A stretch of 33,097 bases of DNA from Candidatus Fervidifonticultor sextus (GTDB lineage: Bacteria; Sysuimicrobiota; Sysuimicrobiia; Sysuimicrobiales; Humicultoraceae): assembly GCA_031459875.1 (NCBI GenBank), contig JAVKHQ010000029.1:1-33097 (forward strand). Reading direction: 5' to 3'. Shown piece by piece: positions 6,516 through 13,494 of the stretch (positions are counted from its first letter, which is position 1; every line of letters starts with the position of its first letter). The notes beneath the pieces were generated by a model, which saw only the letters and a list, made by a program, of their open reading frames with translations, was not told where the DNA came from and searched no databases. Position numbers and translations under genes: made by a program.

Positions 6516-7553
6516 GTGACCTTCAAGTGGCCGGTGATGCTGTGGGCCCTGGGGGCCCTCCCGGCGGCGCTGGGGTTCGCGGCCATAGCCGCCGGGCACC
6601 GGCGCCGGGCCGAGGCCCGTCTGGCGGATCACCACCTCTATGACCGGCTGGTCGGGCCCCTGAGAGGCAGAGACCGCCTCCCGGCTGTGCTGTATTTCTC
6701 GTCATTCGCGCTGCTGATCGTTGCGGCGGCCCGGCCGATCGCGGCCGTGCCGCTCCCGGTCAACCGCGCTACAGTGGTCCTCACGGTCGATGCCAGCCAG
6801 AGCATGGTCGCCGACGACGTGAAACCGACGCGGCTGGAGGCGACGAAGGTAGCGGCGCGCACGCTCGTCGGTGCCCTGCCGCGCGGGGTCCGCGTGGGGC
6901 TGGTGGTCTTCAGCGACGTCGGGACGATCCTGGTGCTGCCGACGACAGACCGCACCGATCTTTTCGATGCGTTGGAACGGCTCCAGACGCAGCAATCCAC
7001 GGCTGTCGGTGCGGCGATTGTCGAGAGCCTGTATGTCCTGCCCGACCGCCGAGCGTTTCTGGGCGAGCGTCTCGCGCGGCTGCGCAACCGGTCGTCCCCC
7101 GACCCGGCGCAAGGATCGCCAGGATCGCCGGGTCCGATGCCGGCTCCGTCGGCTGCCGACCTCCCGCCTGCGGCGATCATCCTGTTCTCGGATGGCGTGA
7201 CCAACACGGGTGTGGACCCGCAGATCGCCGCGGACCTGGCCCGGGAGGCGCGCGTTCCCATCCACGCGGTCGGCGTGGGGCAGGAGGGCGGTGCCGTAAC
7301 GACTCTTGGGGGCCGCCCCGTCCTGGTCCCATTTGACGCCAGCGGCCTGCGGGACCTGGCGCGGCGCACCGGCGGGGAGTACCTGGAGATCGGCGACGAA
7401 GGCGCGCTGCGCCGCATCCCCGCGACCCTGGGGCGCGTCATCGGCTGGGAACGTCACCCCACCGAGGTTACGGCGATCCTGGCGGGCCTGGCGGGGCTGC
7501 TGATGACGACCGGGGCCGCGCTGTCGGCGGCCTGGTTCAGAAGGGTGCCGTGA
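6516..7553 (+). CDS. BatA-like VWA-domain membrane protein
   Basis: N-terminal TM MTFKWPVMLWAL, AAARP, MIDAS DASQS, PTRLEATK, VGLVVFS, ILFSDG, C-terminal TM. Confidence 0.9.
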   Translation: MTFKWPVMLWALGALPAALGFAAIAAGHRRRAEARLADHHLYDRLVGPLRGRDRLPAVLYFSSFALLIVAAARPIAAVPLPVNRATVVLTVDASQSMVADDVKPTRLEATKVAARTLVGALPRGVRVGLVVFSDVGTILVLPTTDRTDLFDALERLQTQQSTAVGAAIVESLYVLPDRRAFLGERLARLRNRSSPDPAQGSPGSPGPMPAPSAADLPPAAIILFSDGVTNTGVDPQIAADLAREARVPIHAVGVGQEGGAVTTLGGRPVLVPFDASGLRDLARRTGGEYLEIGDEGALRRIPATLGRVIGWERHPTEVTAILAGLAGLLMTTGAALSAAWFRRVP

Positions 7554-8527
7554 TGGTGGAATTTCTGTGGCCCGGGTTTCTCGCGGGCTTCGCCCTGCTG
7601 CCGTTCCTGGTCGTGACCTACGTGCGGTGGATCCGGAGGCCGGTGCCACGGGTCGTCGCGTATCCCGACGTGATCACGGTGCTGGCGGCAACGGGGCAGG
7701 GCCGTCGATGGCGGCGTCACCTGGGGGCGGGGCTCTTCCTCGTCGGGCTCGCCGCCGTCATCACGGCGCTGGGCCGACCGACCTTCCCGATTCCTGTGCC
7801 GGCCGACCGGTCCGCCATCATGCTCGTCATCGACATCAGCGGCAGCATGCGGTCGACCGACATTGAGCCCAACCGCCTGGAAGCGGCCAAGGCCGCCGCC
7901 AAGATCTTCCTGGACGACCTGCCGGATCAGGTGCGCGTCGGGCTGGTGACCTTCGGCGGATACGCAACCCTGGTGGCGCCCCCCGGTACGCCGCACGATC
8001 AGATCAAAGCGTCCATCGACGGATTGAACTACTTCATCCGCCGCACCGCGATCGGGGCGGGCCTGCTGGAGGCCATGGCCGCCCTGCCCGGGCGCGTACG
8101 GCCCGGCCCTGACGGAACCCTTCCGTCCCTGCCGACTGTCAAGCGGCCTCCTGGTATCATCATCCTGCTGTCGGACGGGCGGAGCAACACCGGCATCGAC
8201 GCGGTTCGGGCGGCGGAGATGGCCGGAGCCCAGGAGGTCACCATACACACCATTGGCGTCGGGCAGACCGAGTGGAGGCCGGGGGCCTTCATGATCGGCG
8301 GTGCGCTTGATGAGACCGAACTGCGGGCGGTTGCGAGCGCCGGGGGAGGCACCTACCACCACGCCTCATCCGCCTCGGCCCTCAAGGACGTCTATCGGTC
8401 GCTGGCGCGGTCGGTGGGATGGGAGCGTCGGCCCGACGAGGTATCGGCGGTTTTTGCCCTGACCGGCGCCGTGGTGCTCGCCGGTGCGCTCGTGCTCAGG
8501 CAGGTCACCTCCCCGCTGGGCTTCTAG
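7550..8527 (+). CDS. BatA-like VWA-domain membrane protein (paralogue)
   Basis: ALGRP, MIDAS DISGS, PNRLEAAK, VGLVTF, TAIG, LLSDGRSN, TIGVG; overlaps the preceding stop. Confidence 0.9.
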   Translation: MMVEFLWPGFLAGFALLPFLVVTYVRWIRRPVPRVVAYPDVITVLAATGQGRRWRRHLGAGLFLVGLAAVITALGRPTFPIPVPADRSAIMLVIDISGSMRSTDIEPNRLEAAKAAAKIFLDDLPDQVRVGLVTFGGYATLVAPPGTPHDQIKASIDGLNYFIRRTAIGAGLLEAMAALPGRVRPGPDGTLPSLPTVKRPPGIIILLSDGRSNTGIDAVRAAEMAGAQEVTIHTIGVGQTEWRPGAFMIGGALDETELRAVASAGGGTYHHASSASALKDVYRSLARSVGWERRPDEVSAVFALTGAVVLAGALVLRQVTSPLGF

Positions 8528-8690: not shown

Positions 8691-8845
8691 CCCGTAGTCT
8701 TCCGGGGCAGGGTGAGGCGCCGCCAGAGGCGCCGATTCCCGATCGGCGGTGACAGCCCGTGAGGTCCGCCTGCGCTGGGGGCGGGCCGTGGCCCGGTGGA
8801 ATTCCGGGGTCGACGGTACAGTCCGTATGAGGTGAAGGCTACGGG
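8691..8845 (+). ncRNA. FMN riboswitch (RFN element), variant
   Basis: 12-bp P1 (CCCGTAGTCTTC 8691-8702 with GAAGGCTACGGG 8834-8845). Conserved blocks in order: GGGGCAGGGTGA, ATTCCCGA-TCGGCGGT, AGCCCGTGAG, a P4 hairpin, CCCGGTGGAATTCCGGG, TCGACGGTACAGTCCG, ATGAG..GAAG. Extra hairpin in L2 (8716-8733). Confidence 0.9.
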
Positions 8846-8873
8846 AATGTGCGGCGCGTTCTCACGCCCCACG

Positions 8874-8903
8874 GACGCCCGAGTTCGGGCGTCTTCGACT
8901 TTT
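8874..8903 (+). terminator. Terminator-like hairpin of the riboswitch expression platform
   Basis: GACGCCCG-AGTT-CGGGCGTC stem (8874-8893) followed by TTCGACTTTT, between the aptamer and the start codon. Confidence 0.65.
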
Positions 8904-8921
8904 CCACCTGGGGGTGTGGCG

Positions 8922-10070
8922 ATGAACCGCAGCCTTTCCGATCGTGCCGGACGCGTCGTGCTGCTCGCGGTGTGCATCCTGCTGGTCGCGTCACCGGGTC
9001 CGGTGGCGACCCAGGCGCTCCTCGAGAACCGGCTCGTCGTCCTGACGCCCATTCCGCTGGAGGTCGCCAATCCCGTCGCCGACCGGTTCGCCGAGCATGC
9101 CCGGCAGCGCTACGGCGTGGCGGTGCGCCCCACGCTGGTCGCCATGGGCGGTCCGACGATGTATGCCCGCGTCCTCGAGTGGCGCGGCCAGCCGGATGCC
9201 GACCTGCTCTGGGCCAGCGAGGCCGAGGTGCTCGACGACCTGGCCACTCGGCGCCTGATCGTCCCGCACGAACTGCCCGACGGCCTGGTCAGGGATGTCC
9301 CCCCCACGCTCGGTGAGCCCCGCCCCATCCCGCTTCGCGACGGCAAGGGCTTTTGGGTCGGGACGGCGCTGACCGCAGCCGGCATCGTCTACCATCCTCA
9401 CCTGCTCCGCCGGTTGGGCATCGCGCCGCCGCGCGACTGGGACGACCTGACCGAGTGCCGCTTCAAGGGGCAGGTGGTGCAGACGACGCCCGACCGATCT
9501 GCCACCAACCACAGTTCGCTGGAGGTCATCCTGCAGTTGCGAGGGTGGGACAGGGGGTGGGTGTGGGCCCAGCGCCTGGCGGCCAACACCGGCATCTATG
9601 TGACGCGCAGCCGGGATGTGCCGACCTTCGTGGCGCGCGGCGAGTTCGCCGTGGGATTCGCGGTGCTCTCCTACATGGCATTCCAGGAGGTGCTGGCGGG
9701 CCACGACCTGCGCTTCGTCAGCCCCCCGTACGCCTGGATCTCGCCGGCGCCGACGGCCGTGCTGGCCGGCGCGCGCGCGCCGCGGGCCGCCCGCGCCTTC
9801 TTGCAGTACCTGCTCAGCGAAGAGGGCCAGCGGTTGATGACCGCCCACGGGCTGTTTCCGATCGTGCCGAAGTACAAGATGGAGGGGCCTCCGGGTTCGG
9901 TGGCCGCCCAGGCGGCGACGTTTGCGGGCATGCGGTCGTTCTACGACCGACCGGTCAAGACCATCTACGACGACGACCTGGCCCAGAAACGCTACAACGA
10001 GGTCAACGAACTCTATCGGAAATTGATCGTCGAGCGCCTGGCGCAGCTGCAGAAACTGTATTGTCCGTGA
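8922..10070 (+). CDS. ABC-type extracellular substrate-binding protein, AfuA/FbpA-like (SBP_bac_6-type); orphan, riboswitch-preceded
   Basis: Start ATG 8922 after GGGGG; signal peptide; PDADLLW, GIVYH..LL..LGI..PRDWDDL...FKGQV, PDRSAT, VARGEFAVG, AARAFLQYLLSEEGQ. No adjacent permease or ATPase. Confidence 0.85.
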   Translation: MNRSLSDRAGRVVLLAVCILLVASPGPVATQALLENRLVVLTPIPLEVANPVADRFAEHARQRYGVAVRPTLVAMGGPTMYARVLEWRGQPDADLLWASEAEVLDDLATRRLIVPHELPDGLVRDVPPTLGEPRPIPLRDGKGFWVGTALTAAGIVYHPHLLRRLGIAPPRDWDDLTECRFKGQVVQTTPDRSATNHSSLEVILQLRGWDRGWVWAQRLAANTGIYVTRSRDVPTFVARGEFAVGFAVLSYMAFQEVLAGHDLRFVSPPYAWISPAPTAVLAGARAPRAARAFLQYLLSEEGQRLMTAHGLFPIVPKYKMEGPPGSVAAQAATFAGMRSFYDRPVKTIYDDDLAQKRYNEVNELYRKLIVERLAQLQKLYCP

Positions 10071-10140: not shown

Positions 10141-10216
<76 letters not shown>

Positions 10217-10519: not shown

Positions 10520-11731
10520 GTGCCGGGAGTGCCACAGGCCAGGACCAAGCCGCGACCGCGGGTGCGCGCCCGCCGCCCTGCCGAGTTAGCCTCCAACTCC
10601 CTGGCCGTCCTCGCCGCCCTGCGCGGGCGCACCTGCTCCGCCGCTGAACTTGAGCGGGCCACCGGCTTGAGCCAGCTCACGGTCCGCCGCCACGTCTCGG
10701 CACTCGCCGGGTTGGGGCTGGTGGCACCGGCCGGGTTCGGTCGGTCGAACGGCGGCCGACAGCCACGGCTCTTCACGCTGGTCTCGGACAGCCGCTTGGC
10801 CGTGGCCATCCACCTCCAGTTTCCCGGTGCCAGAGTGGCCACTGTCGGGCTGGACGGCAGCATCGCCGCGACGCGCCACGTGCCGGCAGACGGCGGTGAG
10901 GATCCCCTGGTGGTGTTGGACAGGATCGCCGCTGTCGCGCACTCTCTGGTGCGGCGGGTGCCCGAGGGACAGCTGATCGGTGTCGGCGTGGCTTTGCCTG
11001 GGTACGCGGACCTCACCCGCGGGATCGCGTTGCGCATCGGCCGGGCTCCGGCCTGGCGGGACGTCCCTGTGACCGACACCCTGTCCCGGCGCCTGGGGCT
11101 TCCGACGCTAGTGGTGCACGACACCGCGGCGATGGCGCTGGCCGAGTCCGAGGTGGGGGACGCGCGCGGGCAACGGCACTTCGCGTTCGTCCTGGCTGAA
11201 GAGGGCGTCAGTGCCGGACTGTTCCTGGAAGGGACCGTCTATCAGGGAGCGTTCGGCAATGCTGGCCTCCTCGGCCACATGACGGTCCGGCCAGCCGGCC
11301 GTCTCTGCCTCTGCGGCAGCGCGGGCTGCGTGGAAGCCTACACCTCCGCACGCGCCCTGGTGGAGCGATCCAGAGAACTGGAGTCCGAGATCGCCGGACC
11401 GTCGCTGTCGTACCAGGACGTGATTCGGTATGCCCTGTCCGGACGCGAGCCCTTCCGTACCGTGCTGGATGAGGCCCTGGACATCCTCGGCATCGCCATT
11501 GCCAACCTAGCCAAGATCCTGGAGGTCTGCGCGGTCTTCGTGGGAGGCTACCCCGCCAGCCTGCCGGAGGGGGCCCGCCAGCGCGTCTTTGAGGTAGCGC
11601 ACGCGCACCTGCAGCCGCCACTGAGGGTCAACTTCGAGGTCCGTTACAGCCGGGTCCGCGAGGCAGGGCTGATCGGCGCGGCCATTCCGGTGATCCGCCG
11701 GTTCCTCGGGATGCCGGTCGCCACACGATGA
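10520..11731 (+). CDS. ROK-family transcriptional repressor (NagC/XylR-like)
   Basis: HTH SAAELERATGLSQLTVRRHVSALAGLGLV, GGRQP, GVGVALPG, zinc motif GH.......CLCGSAGCVEAY. Confidence 0.9.
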   Translation: MPGVPQARTKPRPRVRARRPAELASNSLAVLAALRGRTCSAAELERATGLSQLTVRRHVSALAGLGLVAPAGFGRSNGGRQPRLFTLVSDSRLAVAIHLQFPGARVATVGLDGSIAATRHVPADGGEDPLVVLDRIAAVAHSLVRRVPEGQLIGVGVALPGYADLTRGIALRIGRAPAWRDVPVTDTLSRRLGLPTLVVHDTAAMALAESEVGDARGQRHFAFVLAEEGVSAGLFLEGTVYQGAFGNAGLLGHMTVRPAGRLCLCGSAGCVEAYTSARALVERSRELESEIAGPSLSYQDVIRYALSGREPFRTVLDEALDILGIAIANLAKILEVCAVFVGGYPASLPEGARQRVFEVAHAHLQPPLRVNFEVRYSRVREAGLIGAAIPVIRRFLGMPVATR

Positions 11732-13494
11732 GCGCCGTGGACGCCGCGCTGGTGAGCCCCGACCGGGTCCGCGCCGGCCAGCAGACCCGGGTGGAGCTGC
11801 GGCTGCGTCTGCGCGAGCCGGTGGAGGCCGGGGCGTCGCTGCGCCTGACGGTGCCGCTGGGCTGGACGCCGCCCTCGCTGGAGGGTGGAGCCGGGCTGAC
11901 CCGGTGGCGCGTGTCAGGCCGCGCGCTGGTCCTGGGTGAGATCGTGCGCCGGCGCTATCTGCAGTTGAACGTGACCGGTGGCCGCCTCCGTCGTGACGAC
12001 GAGATCCTCGTCACCTACGGCGCCGGGCCAGACGGGGCGGTGGCCCAACCGTGGGTGACCGATGTGTCGGCCACCTTTGAGGTGGAGATCTGTCGGCATG
12101 GTGAGGGGCCGTACGTTCCAGACTGCTCGGTTCCCGTCACGGTGGATCCGGCCCCGCCCGCCTACCTGCACGTCGTGGCGCCCTCCGGAGCGTCGCCTGG
12201 CGTCGGAGTCCCGATTCGCCTGCGGGTGCTCGACGAGTTTGGCAATCTCTGCCGGGGCTGCACGGCCGAAGCGCTGATCGCCGGGGTGCTGCCCGCTCCC
12301 ATTGAAGCCGGGTGCGGCGAGGCCCGGCTCACCTTCGCTGCGGAGGGGATCCACCGGGTGGACGTCACCCTGGACGGGCTGGGGCTGTCGGGCCGCTCGA
12401 ACCCGTGTCGGGTCGCGCGGGACGCAGCCGGGATCTGGTGGGGGGATCCCCATGTGCACACCACGCTCTCCGACGGCGTGGCGTCACCTGAGTTTGCCCT
12501 GGCGTACGGGCGTGATGTGGCCTGCCTGGATTTTGCCGCCATCACCGACCACGACATCGAGTACCATCACGCCTGGTTCACGCGGCGCTGCCAGCGTCTG
12601 GCGGATGAGACCTGGTTGGCCCTGGCCGAGACCATCAACCGGTACCGCGCCAGCGGACGGTTTGCCGTCCTGCGGGGGTACGAGTGGACCGGCCGCCCCT
12701 ACGGCGACCGGTGTGTCTACCTGCGCTCCGATGGGACTGCCATATGCCGGTACGAACCGGGTGGCGCCCCCACGCTGCAGGCGCTGTGGCGGGAGCTGAA
12801 ACGCACGGCTCCCCGCGAGGCGCTCGTGGTCCCTCACACCCCTGCGTCGGGCTTCATGGGGACGGACTGGACCGAACACGATGAGGACCTGGAAACTCTC
12901 GTGGAGATCTATTCGATGCACGGATCATCAGAGTGCGCCAGCGGCTCGGCTGAGATGACCGGAGCGGTGCCCGGTCGATACGTCCAGGACGCGCTGGCCC
13001 GGGGGTACCGGCTGGGGTTCGTGGCCGGAGGCGACATGCACAGCAGCCAGCCGGGCAACCCGGTCCTGGCCTTCGGTCCGTACCGCACGCTGCGCTTCAA
13101 GCCGGGCCTGACCGCGGTCCTGGCCGATCGTCTCGACGAGGGCGCGATCCTGGACGCCATGCGGGAACGGCGGACGTACGCCACCACCGGGGCCCGAATC
13201 CTGCTGCAGTTCTCGGTGAACGACGTGCCGCTGGGGGGCAATCTCATCCTCGGTGCCGGCCGGCCGGTCATCGTGCGCGGCCGCATTCACGGCACGGCCG
13301 CGCTGGCAGAGGTGGCCCTGATCCGGGACGGGGTGGCGGCGTACGCGGCGCACCCCCGGCAGGAGGACTTTGAGGTCACGTGGGAGGACCCGCAGCCCGT
13401 TGCCGCTGGAGACGCGTCGTACTACTACTTGCGTGCGGTCCAGGCCGACGGCGAGGTGGCCTGGTCGAGCCCGGTCTGGGTGAGGCGCTCGTGA
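11728..13494 (+). CDS. PHP-like metallohydrolase (DUF3604 / CehA-McbA-like) with N-terminal beta domains
   Basis: WGDPHVHTTLSDG, DFAAITDHD, GYEW, VPH, EIYSMHG, GFVAGGDMH, RRTYATTG, YYYLRAVQADGEVAWSSPVWV. Confidence 0.82.
   Translation: MSAVDAALVSPDRVRAGQQTRVELRLRLREPVEAGASLRLTVPLGWTPPSLEGGAGLTRWRVSGRALVLGEIVRRRYLQLNVTGGRLRRDDEILVTYGAGPDGAVAQPWVTDVSATFEVEICRHGEGPYVPDCSVPVTVDPAPPAYLHVVAPSGASPGVGVPIRLRVLDEFGNLCRGCTAEALIAGVLPAPIEAGCGEARLTFAAEGIHRVDVTLDGLGLSGRSNPCRVARDAAGIWWGDPHVHTTLSDGVASPEFALAYGRDVACLDFAAITDHDIEYHHAWFTRRCQRLADETWLALAETINRYRASGRFAVLRGYEWTGRPYGDRCVYLRSDGTAICRYEPGGAPTLQALWRELKRTAPREALVVPHTPASGFMGTDWTEHDEDLETLVEIYSMHGSSECASGSAEMTGAVPGRYVQDALARGYRLGFVAGGDMHSSQPGNPVLAFGPYRTLRFKPGLTAVLADRLDEGAILDAMRERRTYATTGARILLQFSVNDVPLGGNLILGAGRPVIVRGRIHGTAALAEVALIRDGVAAYAAHPRQEDFEVTWEDPQPVAAGDASYYYLRAVQADGEVAWSSPVWVRRS

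Follow-up and report, generated by a model that had tools for sequence, protein, structure and literature searches.

The variant aptamer, its leader and the regulated gene

The 33,097-nucleotide stretch analyzed here, contig JAVKHQ010000029.1 of Candidatus Fervidifonticultor sextus (assembly GCA_031459875.1), is referred to in its full length as the window. At 8691 to 8845 on its forward strand lies a variant of the flavin mononucleotide (FMN) riboswitch aptamer, followed by a leader with a terminator-type hairpin and by a gene (8922 to 10070) for a 382-residue secreted solute-binding protein. An initial annotation of this DNA had described an FMN-type fold with substitutions in its binding core and proposed a shift in specificity. 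Our results show that the aptamer belongs to a conserved, discrete and lineage-restricted variant class, and comparison of its members makes altered specificity well supported. Judging from gene context, this class is probably an offshoot of the FMN fold that controls vitamin B6 supply, with pyridoxal 5'-phosphate (PLP) or a closely related B6 vitamer as its ligand, a reading to which we assign a probability of about 0.58.

All six helices around the central junction are present, as first described, and this FMN-type architecture, with P1 closing the junction, is borne out by a full-length alignment to the Rfam FMN model (RF00050) and by covariation within the class. Infernal aligned positions 8694 to 8842 to model positions 1 to 138, end to end, with 62.2 bits (E 1.2e-13), which is far above chance. 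This score lies under the gathering score of the family (66.2), placing the copy outside RF00050 by score; consequently, a default Rfam scan does not list the aptamer and returns two transfer RNAs (tRNAs) only. The minimum free energy (MFE) fold recovered P1, P2, P4, P5 and P6, and the folding z-score of the leader (-1.72) is uninformative at this G+C content.

The 5' strand of P1 (8691 to 8702) pairs with 8834 to 8845 over the 12 bp originally reported, including one G-U pair. In J1/2 (8703 to 8709), which houses the phosphate-contact bases G10 and G11, an extra pyrimidine (C8703) precedes GGGGCA. The extended P2 stem (8710 to 8740) contains P2b (8716 to 8721 with 8728 to 8733), and the AUCG motif follows at 8742 to 8745, with C8744 and G8745 (G32) making a 2-bp helix with 8811 and 8812. 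P3 (8746 to 8760) has a closing G-U pair (U8760) and an extra loop base at 8751; J3/4 (8761 to 8762) comprises G47 and A48, the latter kept, and the P4 hairpin (8763 to 8787) is variable in length. U61 and G62 are kept in J4/5, GUGG (8788 to 8791), and the base after them is G, not A. The loop of P5 (8792 to 8808), UGGAAUU, is nearly fixed in the class. J5/6, GUCGA (8809 to 8813), keeps G84 and A85 and includes U8810, corresponding to C82U. Finally, the invariant 3-bp stem of P6 (8814 to 8825) leads into J6/1, UAUGAGGU (8826 to 8833), which keeps A99 (8827), carries G98U (8826) and G102A (8830) and exceeds the canonical GAUGGGA by one base. UAUG in place of GAUG after P6 (T8826), UGG at 8789 to 8791 and AUGAGGU at 8827 to 8833 are all as the initial annotation read them. 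One further RF00050 match (92.5 bits) occurs in the same genome (3.05 Mb, 96% complete), directly 5' of ribD. It likewise reads CCCGAUCGG, and it has GCCGAC where the window has GUCGAC, GGAUGGGAGAAGG versus GUAUGAGGUGAAGG and UGAU versus GUGG.

The leader downstream contains, on the forward strand, GCCCC (8866 to 8870), which is complementary to the GGGGC of J1/2 and is a candidate switching element; a terminator-type hairpin, GGACGCCCG-AGUU-CGGGCGUC, with an interrupted U-tract, UUCGACUUUUCC (8873 to 8905); and a Shine-Dalgarno-like GGGGGUG with the ATG start codon at 8922 to 8924 (8910 to 8924 together). Scanning the window for promoter and terminator patterns found nothing, the terminator being missed because the U-run is interrupted. 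In the predicted fold of the window's leader, the region of GCCCC is paired to the start codon and the Shine-Dalgarno region.

The regulated gene is on the same strand, starts with ATG at 8922 and encodes a protein with a signal-peptide-like N-terminus, assigned to the AfuA/P5PA group of secreted solute-binding proteins (PF13531, 1.6e-18; also PF13343). Its best solved relatives are AfuA (4r72, 5e-15) and P5PA (6wce, 3.2e-14). Since a tRNA follows at 10141 to 10213, the gene is monocistronic. In the published description of P5PA, phosphate is held by Thr37, Ser147, Gly148, Thr149 and Ser183 and the ring by Tyr103 and His203 (PMC8427247). The PF13531 fold is shared by the window protein, in which the Ser-Gly-Thr clamp aligns to Ser-Ala-Thr, and its likely ligand is a small phosphorylated compound. 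The neighboring genes are unrelated to vitamins: two von Willebrand factor A/BatA-type genes lie upstream (6516 to 8527, forward strand), and a ROK-family regulator and a DUF3604 protein are encoded downstream (10520 to 13494, forward strand).

A lineage-restricted class with a remodeled pocket

To place the window copy, RF00050 was searched in 61 related genomes, and the sequences compared comprise the matches found except about nine high-scoring ones and one fragment. Many of these genomes have two kinds of match, at about 88 to 103 bits and about 57 to 73 bits. The compared matches carry either GGAUG or GUAUGA/GUACGA after P6, with the degenerate L071, which has neither, as the sole exception. 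A signature of 20 bases over P6 and J6/1 was then scanned against genomes of 185,579 species and against metagenome contigs. It occurred in 36 stretches of genomes, nearly all of them metagenome-assembled genomes (MAGs) titled Armatimonadota or "bacterium," and in 52 stretches of metagenome contigs. The genomes supplied 38 unique full-length variants and the metagenomes 28 more, for a total of 66. Within the phylum, the exact signature was found in 34 of 94 genomes, all from two families: 17/33 plus the window's genome in the first (f1) and 16/22 in the second (f2), compared with 0/38 in the other five families. Members other than the window copy score 57.3 to 72.9 bits, on both sides of the Rfam threshold. 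Two genomes, G013 and G022, supply a canonical copy (L020), a contig-end variant (L048) and two signature matches, and no conclusion rests on them.

Several sequences near the class were set apart. L157 and L164 were rejected as members, being AT-rich chance matches to the 20-mer. L074, titled Bacillota, had seemed to be a G98U copy outside the phylum; it is a contig-end near-duplicate of the canonical riboswitch of the same genome (L207; both G094), whose 3' end the fragment repeats with T for G at position 98 and one downstream difference, and either strain variation or an assembly artifact probably accounts for it. Upstream of an ortholog of the binding-protein gene, L051 (G008:C4:82815-82916; 26.6 bits) has an intact 3' aptamer half and an unrecognizable 5' half; it is a naturally decayed copy, unlike the rest of the class. 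The canonical FMN riboswitches of a further family, f5 (L052 to L060 and L064 to L068), which precede RibU-type or rib genes, have a canonical core and a large insertion in the P5 loop, owing to which they score 41 to 65 bits, below the threshold.

Covariation across the class shows that selection maintains the helices. When the FMN secondary structure, set on the window sequence, was laid over an alignment of 37 variants (L101, of 214 nt, was excluded), 97.8% of cells paired, versus 36 to 56% when the partners were slid by 1 to 3 columns. Compensatory, two-sided changes were found in 21 of 38 pairs, distributed as 10/10 in P1, 6/6 in P2b (with 99.1% of cells paired), 4/5 of the outer pairs of P4 and 1/5 in P5. 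None of 500 shuffles reached any of five covariation measures; this control overstates significance because the sequences are related, a relatedness that affects neither the slid-partner control nor the count of distinct pair types. Thus, the original argument that intact pairing with clustered pocket changes reflects a shift in specificity and not decay holds: the changes are common to 38 unique genome and 28 unique metagenome sequences, and the helices covary.

Pocket bases were compared between the 38 unique genome variants and a set of canonical aptamers from the same order (51 unique sequences), with an outgroup of all 60 RF00050 matches from 61 genomes of an unrelated class, entered via a Bacillota-titled locus. 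According to the published account of the family, FMN is contacted by G10, G11, G32, G62 and G84 on the ribityl-phosphate side and by A48, A85 and A99 on the ring side (PMC6298564). All eight bases are invariant in 38/38 variants (A48 being A8762), as are G at 8704 to 8707 and G8790. A different picture emerges at position 98. The reports on FMN riboswitches describe a G98-A85 pair as the platform beneath the isoalloxazine ring (10.1101/389148) and A48 as stacking on the ligand (PMC6298564, PMC7573352); the isoalloxazine side of the pocket is formed by A85, G98 and A99, with U61 and G62 in J4/5 (PMC7573352). Every variant lacks the G of this platform and has U98, compared with G in 51/51 local canonical copies and with 59 G, one C and no U among the 60 outgroup copies. 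The J6/1 change is likewise found in every variant and in 0/51 local canonical copies. The counts at 8826 to 8830 in the comparison of 38 with 51 are circular, as the sorting pattern fixed those positions; an unfiltered inspection of the RF00050 matches gives the same split. What truly marks the class is G98U together with the J6/1 change. Within the latter, G102A alone means little because A102 is frequent in the outgroup (21 of 41 parsed matches).

Further markers are independent of the sorting. U8760, in the closing pair of P3, is present in 38/38 variants, versus C in 51/51 canonical copies; G62 is followed by G8791 in 35/38, versus A in 37/51; and C8792 is found in 37/38, versus U in 36/51. 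The L5 sequence UGGAAUU is nearly fixed and L3 is one base longer. One base is inserted on either side of the P1-adjacent junction, where 8703 (U in 20 variants, C in 17 and A in one) faces 8833 in a non-Watson-Crick opposition. Of the two other motifs singled out initially, UCGA (8810 to 8813) is correctly placed and its U8810 (C82U) is enriched in the class, at 31/38 compared with 0/51 and 0/60 (C82 in 60/60 outgroup copies), although it is not universal there. AUCG (8742 to 8745) is also where it was said to be, but it has no special significance: U8743, present in 38/38 variants, occurs in 24/51 canonical copies, among them the one at ribD in the window's genome, and the motif is therefore lineage background. 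Two of the four substitutions listed initially thus weigh less than was assumed. Taken together with the published contacts, these counts indicate that the class leaves the phosphate side of the pocket intact and has its changes on the ring side (G98U and J6/1) and in the flanks of G62 and A48. Three outgroup sequences also depart from the canonical pocket: L234 (G103:C2:16230-16379; 59 bits) has C85, C98 and U99, and L229 and L233 have GGAUAAA after P6 and an altered J1/2. These three may also differ in specificity and possibly correspond to the Clostridium subtypes already published.

Vitamin B6 genes downstream of the class

The genes that follow the aptamer fall into a few kinds. At the 36 genome loci, these are the binding protein (11 loci), an energy-coupling factor S component (ECF-S, PF07155) with an AIR-synthase-like (AIRS-like) gene (15 loci), pdxS (6 loci), a contig edge (3 loci) and an unrelated gene (L074). 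Apart from the two chance matches, the 52 metagenome loci comprise 28 with ECF-S, 13 with pdxS, 5 with the binding protein, one with an APC permease, one unclear and 2 at a contig edge; the two collections may share contigs, and their locus counts are not independent. In both loci tested (L091 and L099), pdxT after pdxS was confirmed by Pfam and NCBIfam, with 508.6 bits for PdxS (equivalog cutoff, 395) and 235.7 for PdxT (cutoff, 105.55). No riboflavin, other flavin or deazaflavin gene was found 3' of the variant at any genome or metagenome locus with downstream sequence. As a control, each of the 51 unique canonical aptamers was examined in the same way: 37 lie ahead of ribD and 14 ahead of a RibU-type PF12822 gene. 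The two types never exchange gene contexts, and the same genomes keep a canonical copy of 88 to 103 bits at ribD or RibU. The riboflavin, flavin precursor, breakdown product or deazaflavin ligand envisaged by the initial annotation accordingly finds no counterpart beside the variants, where B6 genes stand instead.

The best solved relative of the ECF-S component is chain S of 4hzu (2.8e-20), which is the HmpT/PdxU2 component; this carrier was first predicted to transport hydroxymethylpyrimidine and was later tied to pyridoxamine, as its description records (PMC4860826). A comparative-genomics paper on the PLP pathway names PdxU, PdxU2/HmpT (COG4720, PF07155) and P5PA (PF13531) as the only characterized prokaryotic B6 transporters and states that alternative B6 kinases are yet to be found (PMC9997740). 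Both characterized transporter families PF07155 and PF13531 occur in the regulon of the variant. In most ECF loci, the PdxU-like component is followed by the AIR-synthase-related protein (PF00586 and PF02769; for instance at L078:1024-2028 and L081:3673-4692, both on the forward strand). Its nearest NCBIfam models are HypE, ThiL and SelD, all far under cutoff, and the ESM Atlas returned only "AIR synthase family protein." The gene is tied to B6 by its position on the same strand after pdxS-pdxT in L158 (3400-4377, forward strand), and its product is a candidate enzyme for a B6 salvage step. At a single metagenome locus (L153:3-983, reverse strand), the gene after the variant, truncated at the contig end, encodes an APC-family amino-acid-type permease (PF13520) and may add a fourth transporter type to the regulon.

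Downstream of some ECF-S/AIRS operons are genes for ThiT and thiamine pyrophosphokinase. Between these and the AIRS-like gene lie thiamine pyrophosphate (TPP) riboswitches above the Rfam threshold, at L078:2028-2140 and L093:4695-4807 on the forward strand and at L076:1266-1378 on the reverse strand. These three loci thus present two vitamin-uptake units side by side with one riboswitch each, and because the thiamine genes are served by a TPP riboswitch of their own, the sensing of thiamine is independent of the variant.

Which genes the genomes contain also agrees with a B6 role. In the window's genome (96% complete), a Phos_pyr_kin kinase is encoded but neither PdxS nor PdxJ, the enzymes diagnostic of the two known routes to PLP, gave a match, and pdxS has no match in any of the six genomes of the genus, bearing in mind that the absence of a gene from an incomplete assembly is no proof of absence. 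In five of these six (G000 to G004), the variant precedes the binding protein; the remaining one (G005) has no FMN-type match. Within the two families with the variant, pdxS is present in eight sampled genomes, in seven of them with the variant directly upstream. The exception is G017, where three copies of a CAGTACTACTG-type motif are found upstream of pdxS (L112, G017:C134); this motif may be a protein operator that replaces the riboswitch. In families without the variant, pdxS was found in the same sample in 8/8 (f4), 8/8 (f5) and 1/1 (f7) genomes, and not in the single f3 and the single f6 genome. The regulon also suggests that many members of the clade depend on environmental B6. In a tree of 89 aptamers, the 38 variants form one clade on a long stem with no canonical copy inside, and the pdxS-linked variants branch closest to the root; the alignment is short and does not establish the order of events. 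A single origin at pdxS with later recruitment to importer genes is consistent with this tree.

The three gene classes also have one leader type: GCCCC, the GGACGCCCG-loop-CGGGCGUC hairpin and a U-rich tract. The hairpin motif is found in 37/38 unique variants, whatever gene follows, and GCCCC lies 3 to 5 nt ahead of the terminator arm in 36/37 leaders. The switching sequence of FMN riboswitches includes J1/2 (PMC7573352), and pairing of GCCCC with J1/2 as the switching helix is only a lead. Covariation of U82 with the terminator arm was considered and rejected, as C82 variants have the same arm. The hairpin looks like an intrinsic terminator, which suggests an OFF switch suited to biosynthesis and uptake genes. 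Given the interrupted U-tract and the predicted pairing of the ribosome-binding site, translational control may be weightier in the window's genus.

Candidate ligands and relation to known systems

Under the preferred reading, in which the class controls B6 supply, the retained phosphate pocket and the remodeled ring pocket would together bind PLP or else a related B6 vitamer. In the class, U98 replaces the G98-A85 stacking platform, J6/1 has changed from GAUGGGA to UAUGAGGY, one extra base flanks the upper end of P1 on either strand, and the neighbors of G62 and A48 are altered. Binding of the ligand would stabilize P1 and leave the downstream hairpin free to terminate transcription; in the window, with its weak U-tract, the leader could sequester the ribosome-binding site instead or additionally. 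Thus, plentiful B6 would shut off synthesis of the secreted binding protein for B6 uptake. A fuller account would make this the first natural PLP riboswitch, an FMN aptamer with its phosphate pocket kept and its ring pocket rebuilt, which probably began at pdxST and later took in B6 importers as the lineage lost PLP synthesis, with the AIRS-like enzyme providing the missing B6 salvage step. We consider the odds of this fuller account to be even.

Several observations weigh against PLP as the ligand or against this mode of control. Gene context is the sole source of the ligand assignment; A48, A85 and A99, the bases that hold the flavin ring, are unchanged and compatible with a flavin-like ligand; and the link between ring and phosphate is much shorter in PLP than in FMN, which may make it hard for one pocket to hold both ends. 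The pdxS gene of G017 has no riboswitch, PF07155 proteins were formerly predicted to be thiamine-precursor carriers, with some ECF-S operons adjoining thiamine genes, and the AIRS-like partner has no known B6 role. The window protein is only distantly related to P5PA: His203 is replaced by Ser or a gap in a weakly aligned region, and the Tyr103 site is ambiguous, with Trp there when aligned to AfuA and Gly when aligned to P5PA. Its best NCBIfam match is the phosphonate-binding PhnS2, at 70 bits versus a cutoff of 393, and the ATP-binding cassette permease and ATPase genes of a P5PA-type operon do not accompany it (a tRNA follows in the window and trigger factor in L080 and L088). Regarding the switch, no anti-terminator was found by folding the segment from J6/1 to the terminator, the full transcript or the transcript with the P1 5' strand blocked, and the terminator hairpin is in the MFE fold of 35/37 leaders unconstrained and of 37/37 with that strand blocked. 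The support of the variant clade is only 0.58. Finally, the class is limited to two families of one phylum, mostly MAGs, and its counts are consequently not independent.

A first alternative is another non-flavin metabolite as the ligand, such as a sugar phosphate, a compound of the thiamine or hydroxymethylpyrimidine type, or a B6 vitamer without a phosphate, for example pyridoxal or pyridoxamine. This is unlikely, though it draws on the history of HmpT within PF07155 as a predicted hydroxymethylpyrimidine carrier later tied to pyridoxamine (PMC4860826), on the ThiT and thiamine pyrophosphokinase genes after some operons, on the resemblance of the AIRS-like protein to ThiL and HypE and on a binding protein equally near the sugar-phosphate binder AfuA and P5PA. 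A thiamine ligand loses ground because L076, L078 and L093 have separate TPP riboswitches immediately behind the AIRS gene, an unphosphorylated ligand because the phosphate-contact guanines are kept, and a non-B6 metabolite because the AIRS-like gene of L158 follows pdxS-pdxT on the same strand. For the pdxS-pdxT operons, at 6 genome loci and 13 in metagenomes, neither thiamine nor a sugar phosphate would be a logical signal.

That the class still responds to FMN, with tolerated substitutions and B6 genes tied to flavin status, would agree with the eight intact contact bases and with several members scoring 67.8 to 72.3 bits, above the Rfam FMN threshold. It is nevertheless improbable, as the same genomes hold a canonical 88-to-103-bit copy for ribD or RibU, riboflavin context accompanies 51/51 canonical copies and no variant, and position 98 separates the variants from 59/60 outgroup and 51/51 local copies. 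Furthermore, the PLP synthase PdxST is not known to depend on a flavin, which also counts against an FMN response.

Sensing of a flavin relative (riboflavin, lumichrome, lumiflavin, roseoflavin or a deazaflavin) has a precedent in the Clostridium FMN variants described as binding riboflavin, lumiflavin and lumichrome (PMC6298564), and the kept ring-contacting adenines would suit it. Those variants, however, lose phosphate-contact guanines and precede efflux pumps or COG3601, neither of which applies here; the class precedes PLP synthase and B6-type importers, with no flavin or deazaflavin gene downstream at any locus. Unlike in the known flavin-derivative-binding variants, the kept guanines argue for a phosphorylated ligand, and we regard a flavin relative as very doubtful. 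A decaying, nonfunctional FMN riboswitch remnant, which the subthreshold score of the window copy and the missing 5' half of L051 might suggest, has a negligible probability, since the paired cells and compensatory changes rule it out and the deviations are shared, not scattered, over 38 + 28 unique sequences with a conserved expression platform.

If the B6 reading is correct, its implications reach beyond this lineage. A 2022 review presents PLP as a near-universal coenzyme without a validated riboswitch class (PMC10043782), a recognized gap that confirmed binding would fill. A full-text search for a PLP, pyridoxal-phosphate or B6 riboswitch, which did not cover Weinberg et al. 2017b or the supplements of Atilho et al. 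2019, found no description, and the titles and abstracts retrieved for riboswitches with pdxS or pyridoxal and FMN variants describe no such RNA. The text of the Atilho FMN-variant paper (PMC6298564) contains no words in pyridox-, SOR, solute-binding or Armatimonad-; pyridox-, PLP and Armatimonad- do not occur in the 2017 riboswitch census, nor "riboswitch" in the PLP pathway paper (PMC9997740). Some members of the class pass the Rfam threshold and would be annotated as FMN riboswitches, which may explain how it stayed hidden inside that family. The defined sequence, about 155 nt long, together with the 66 unique natural variants and a clear choice of ligands makes the question of a PLP riboswitch directly testable. 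If true, it would mean that a large, complex aptamer can switch ligand class with every direct contact base kept, a kind of change that surveys of contact positions alone would miss. The regulon also nominates the binding protein, the ECF component and the AIRS-like enzyme for the poorly known B6 transport and salvage of bacteria.

The closest known system is the FMN riboswitch itself (RF00050), with which the class shares the six helices, GGGGCA in J1/2, the eight contact bases and a leader in which the aptamer precedes a terminator hairpin. It differs in U98, in a J6/1 (UAUGAGGY) one base longer, in the extra J1/2 pyrimidine, in the mostly G base after G62, in the G-U pair closing P3, in the fixed L5 and the additional L3 base and in never lying beside riboflavin genes. 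Like the class described here, the subtype 1 and 2 variants of Clostridium and Atopobium are presented by Atilho et al. as rare offshoots of the FMN fold before transporters, thought to have changed ligand and formerly lumped with the FMN family (PMC6298564). In the features given there, their phosphate- and ribityl-contact guanines have been replaced, chiefly by adenines, with positions 48, 85 and 99 kept, whereas all guanines are retained here; they precede COG3601 or MATE/MFS efflux genes, in contrast to pdxST, PF07155 ECF-S with the AIRS-like gene, and PF13531. Subtype 2, reported to bind riboflavin, lumiflavin and lumichrome, is an ON switch, whereas the present class looks like an OFF switch, belongs to another phylum and has G98 and J6/1 changed.

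In function, the nearest counterpart is PdxR, a MocR-type PLP-responsive factor whose described regulon of pdxST, pdxK and pdxU (PMC5320631) matches the functional set of the variant. PdxR is a DNA-binding protein with no homology to a cis-acting RNA, and the variant would be its functional counterpart. At the protein level, P5PA (6wce) and AfuA (4r72) share PF13531 and the Ser-x-Thr clamp with the window protein, which is distant from them, has no His203 and has no adjacent permease or ATPase gene. Finally, on other scaffolds and for other ligands than the variant FMN class, the re-tuned riboswitches of the guanine family (to xanthine, 2'-deoxyguanosine and 8-oxoguanine) and of the S-adenosylmethionine family (to spermidine) are described as having, like the RNA in the window, a few pocket changes in a conserved scaffold, seen by a switch in gene context.

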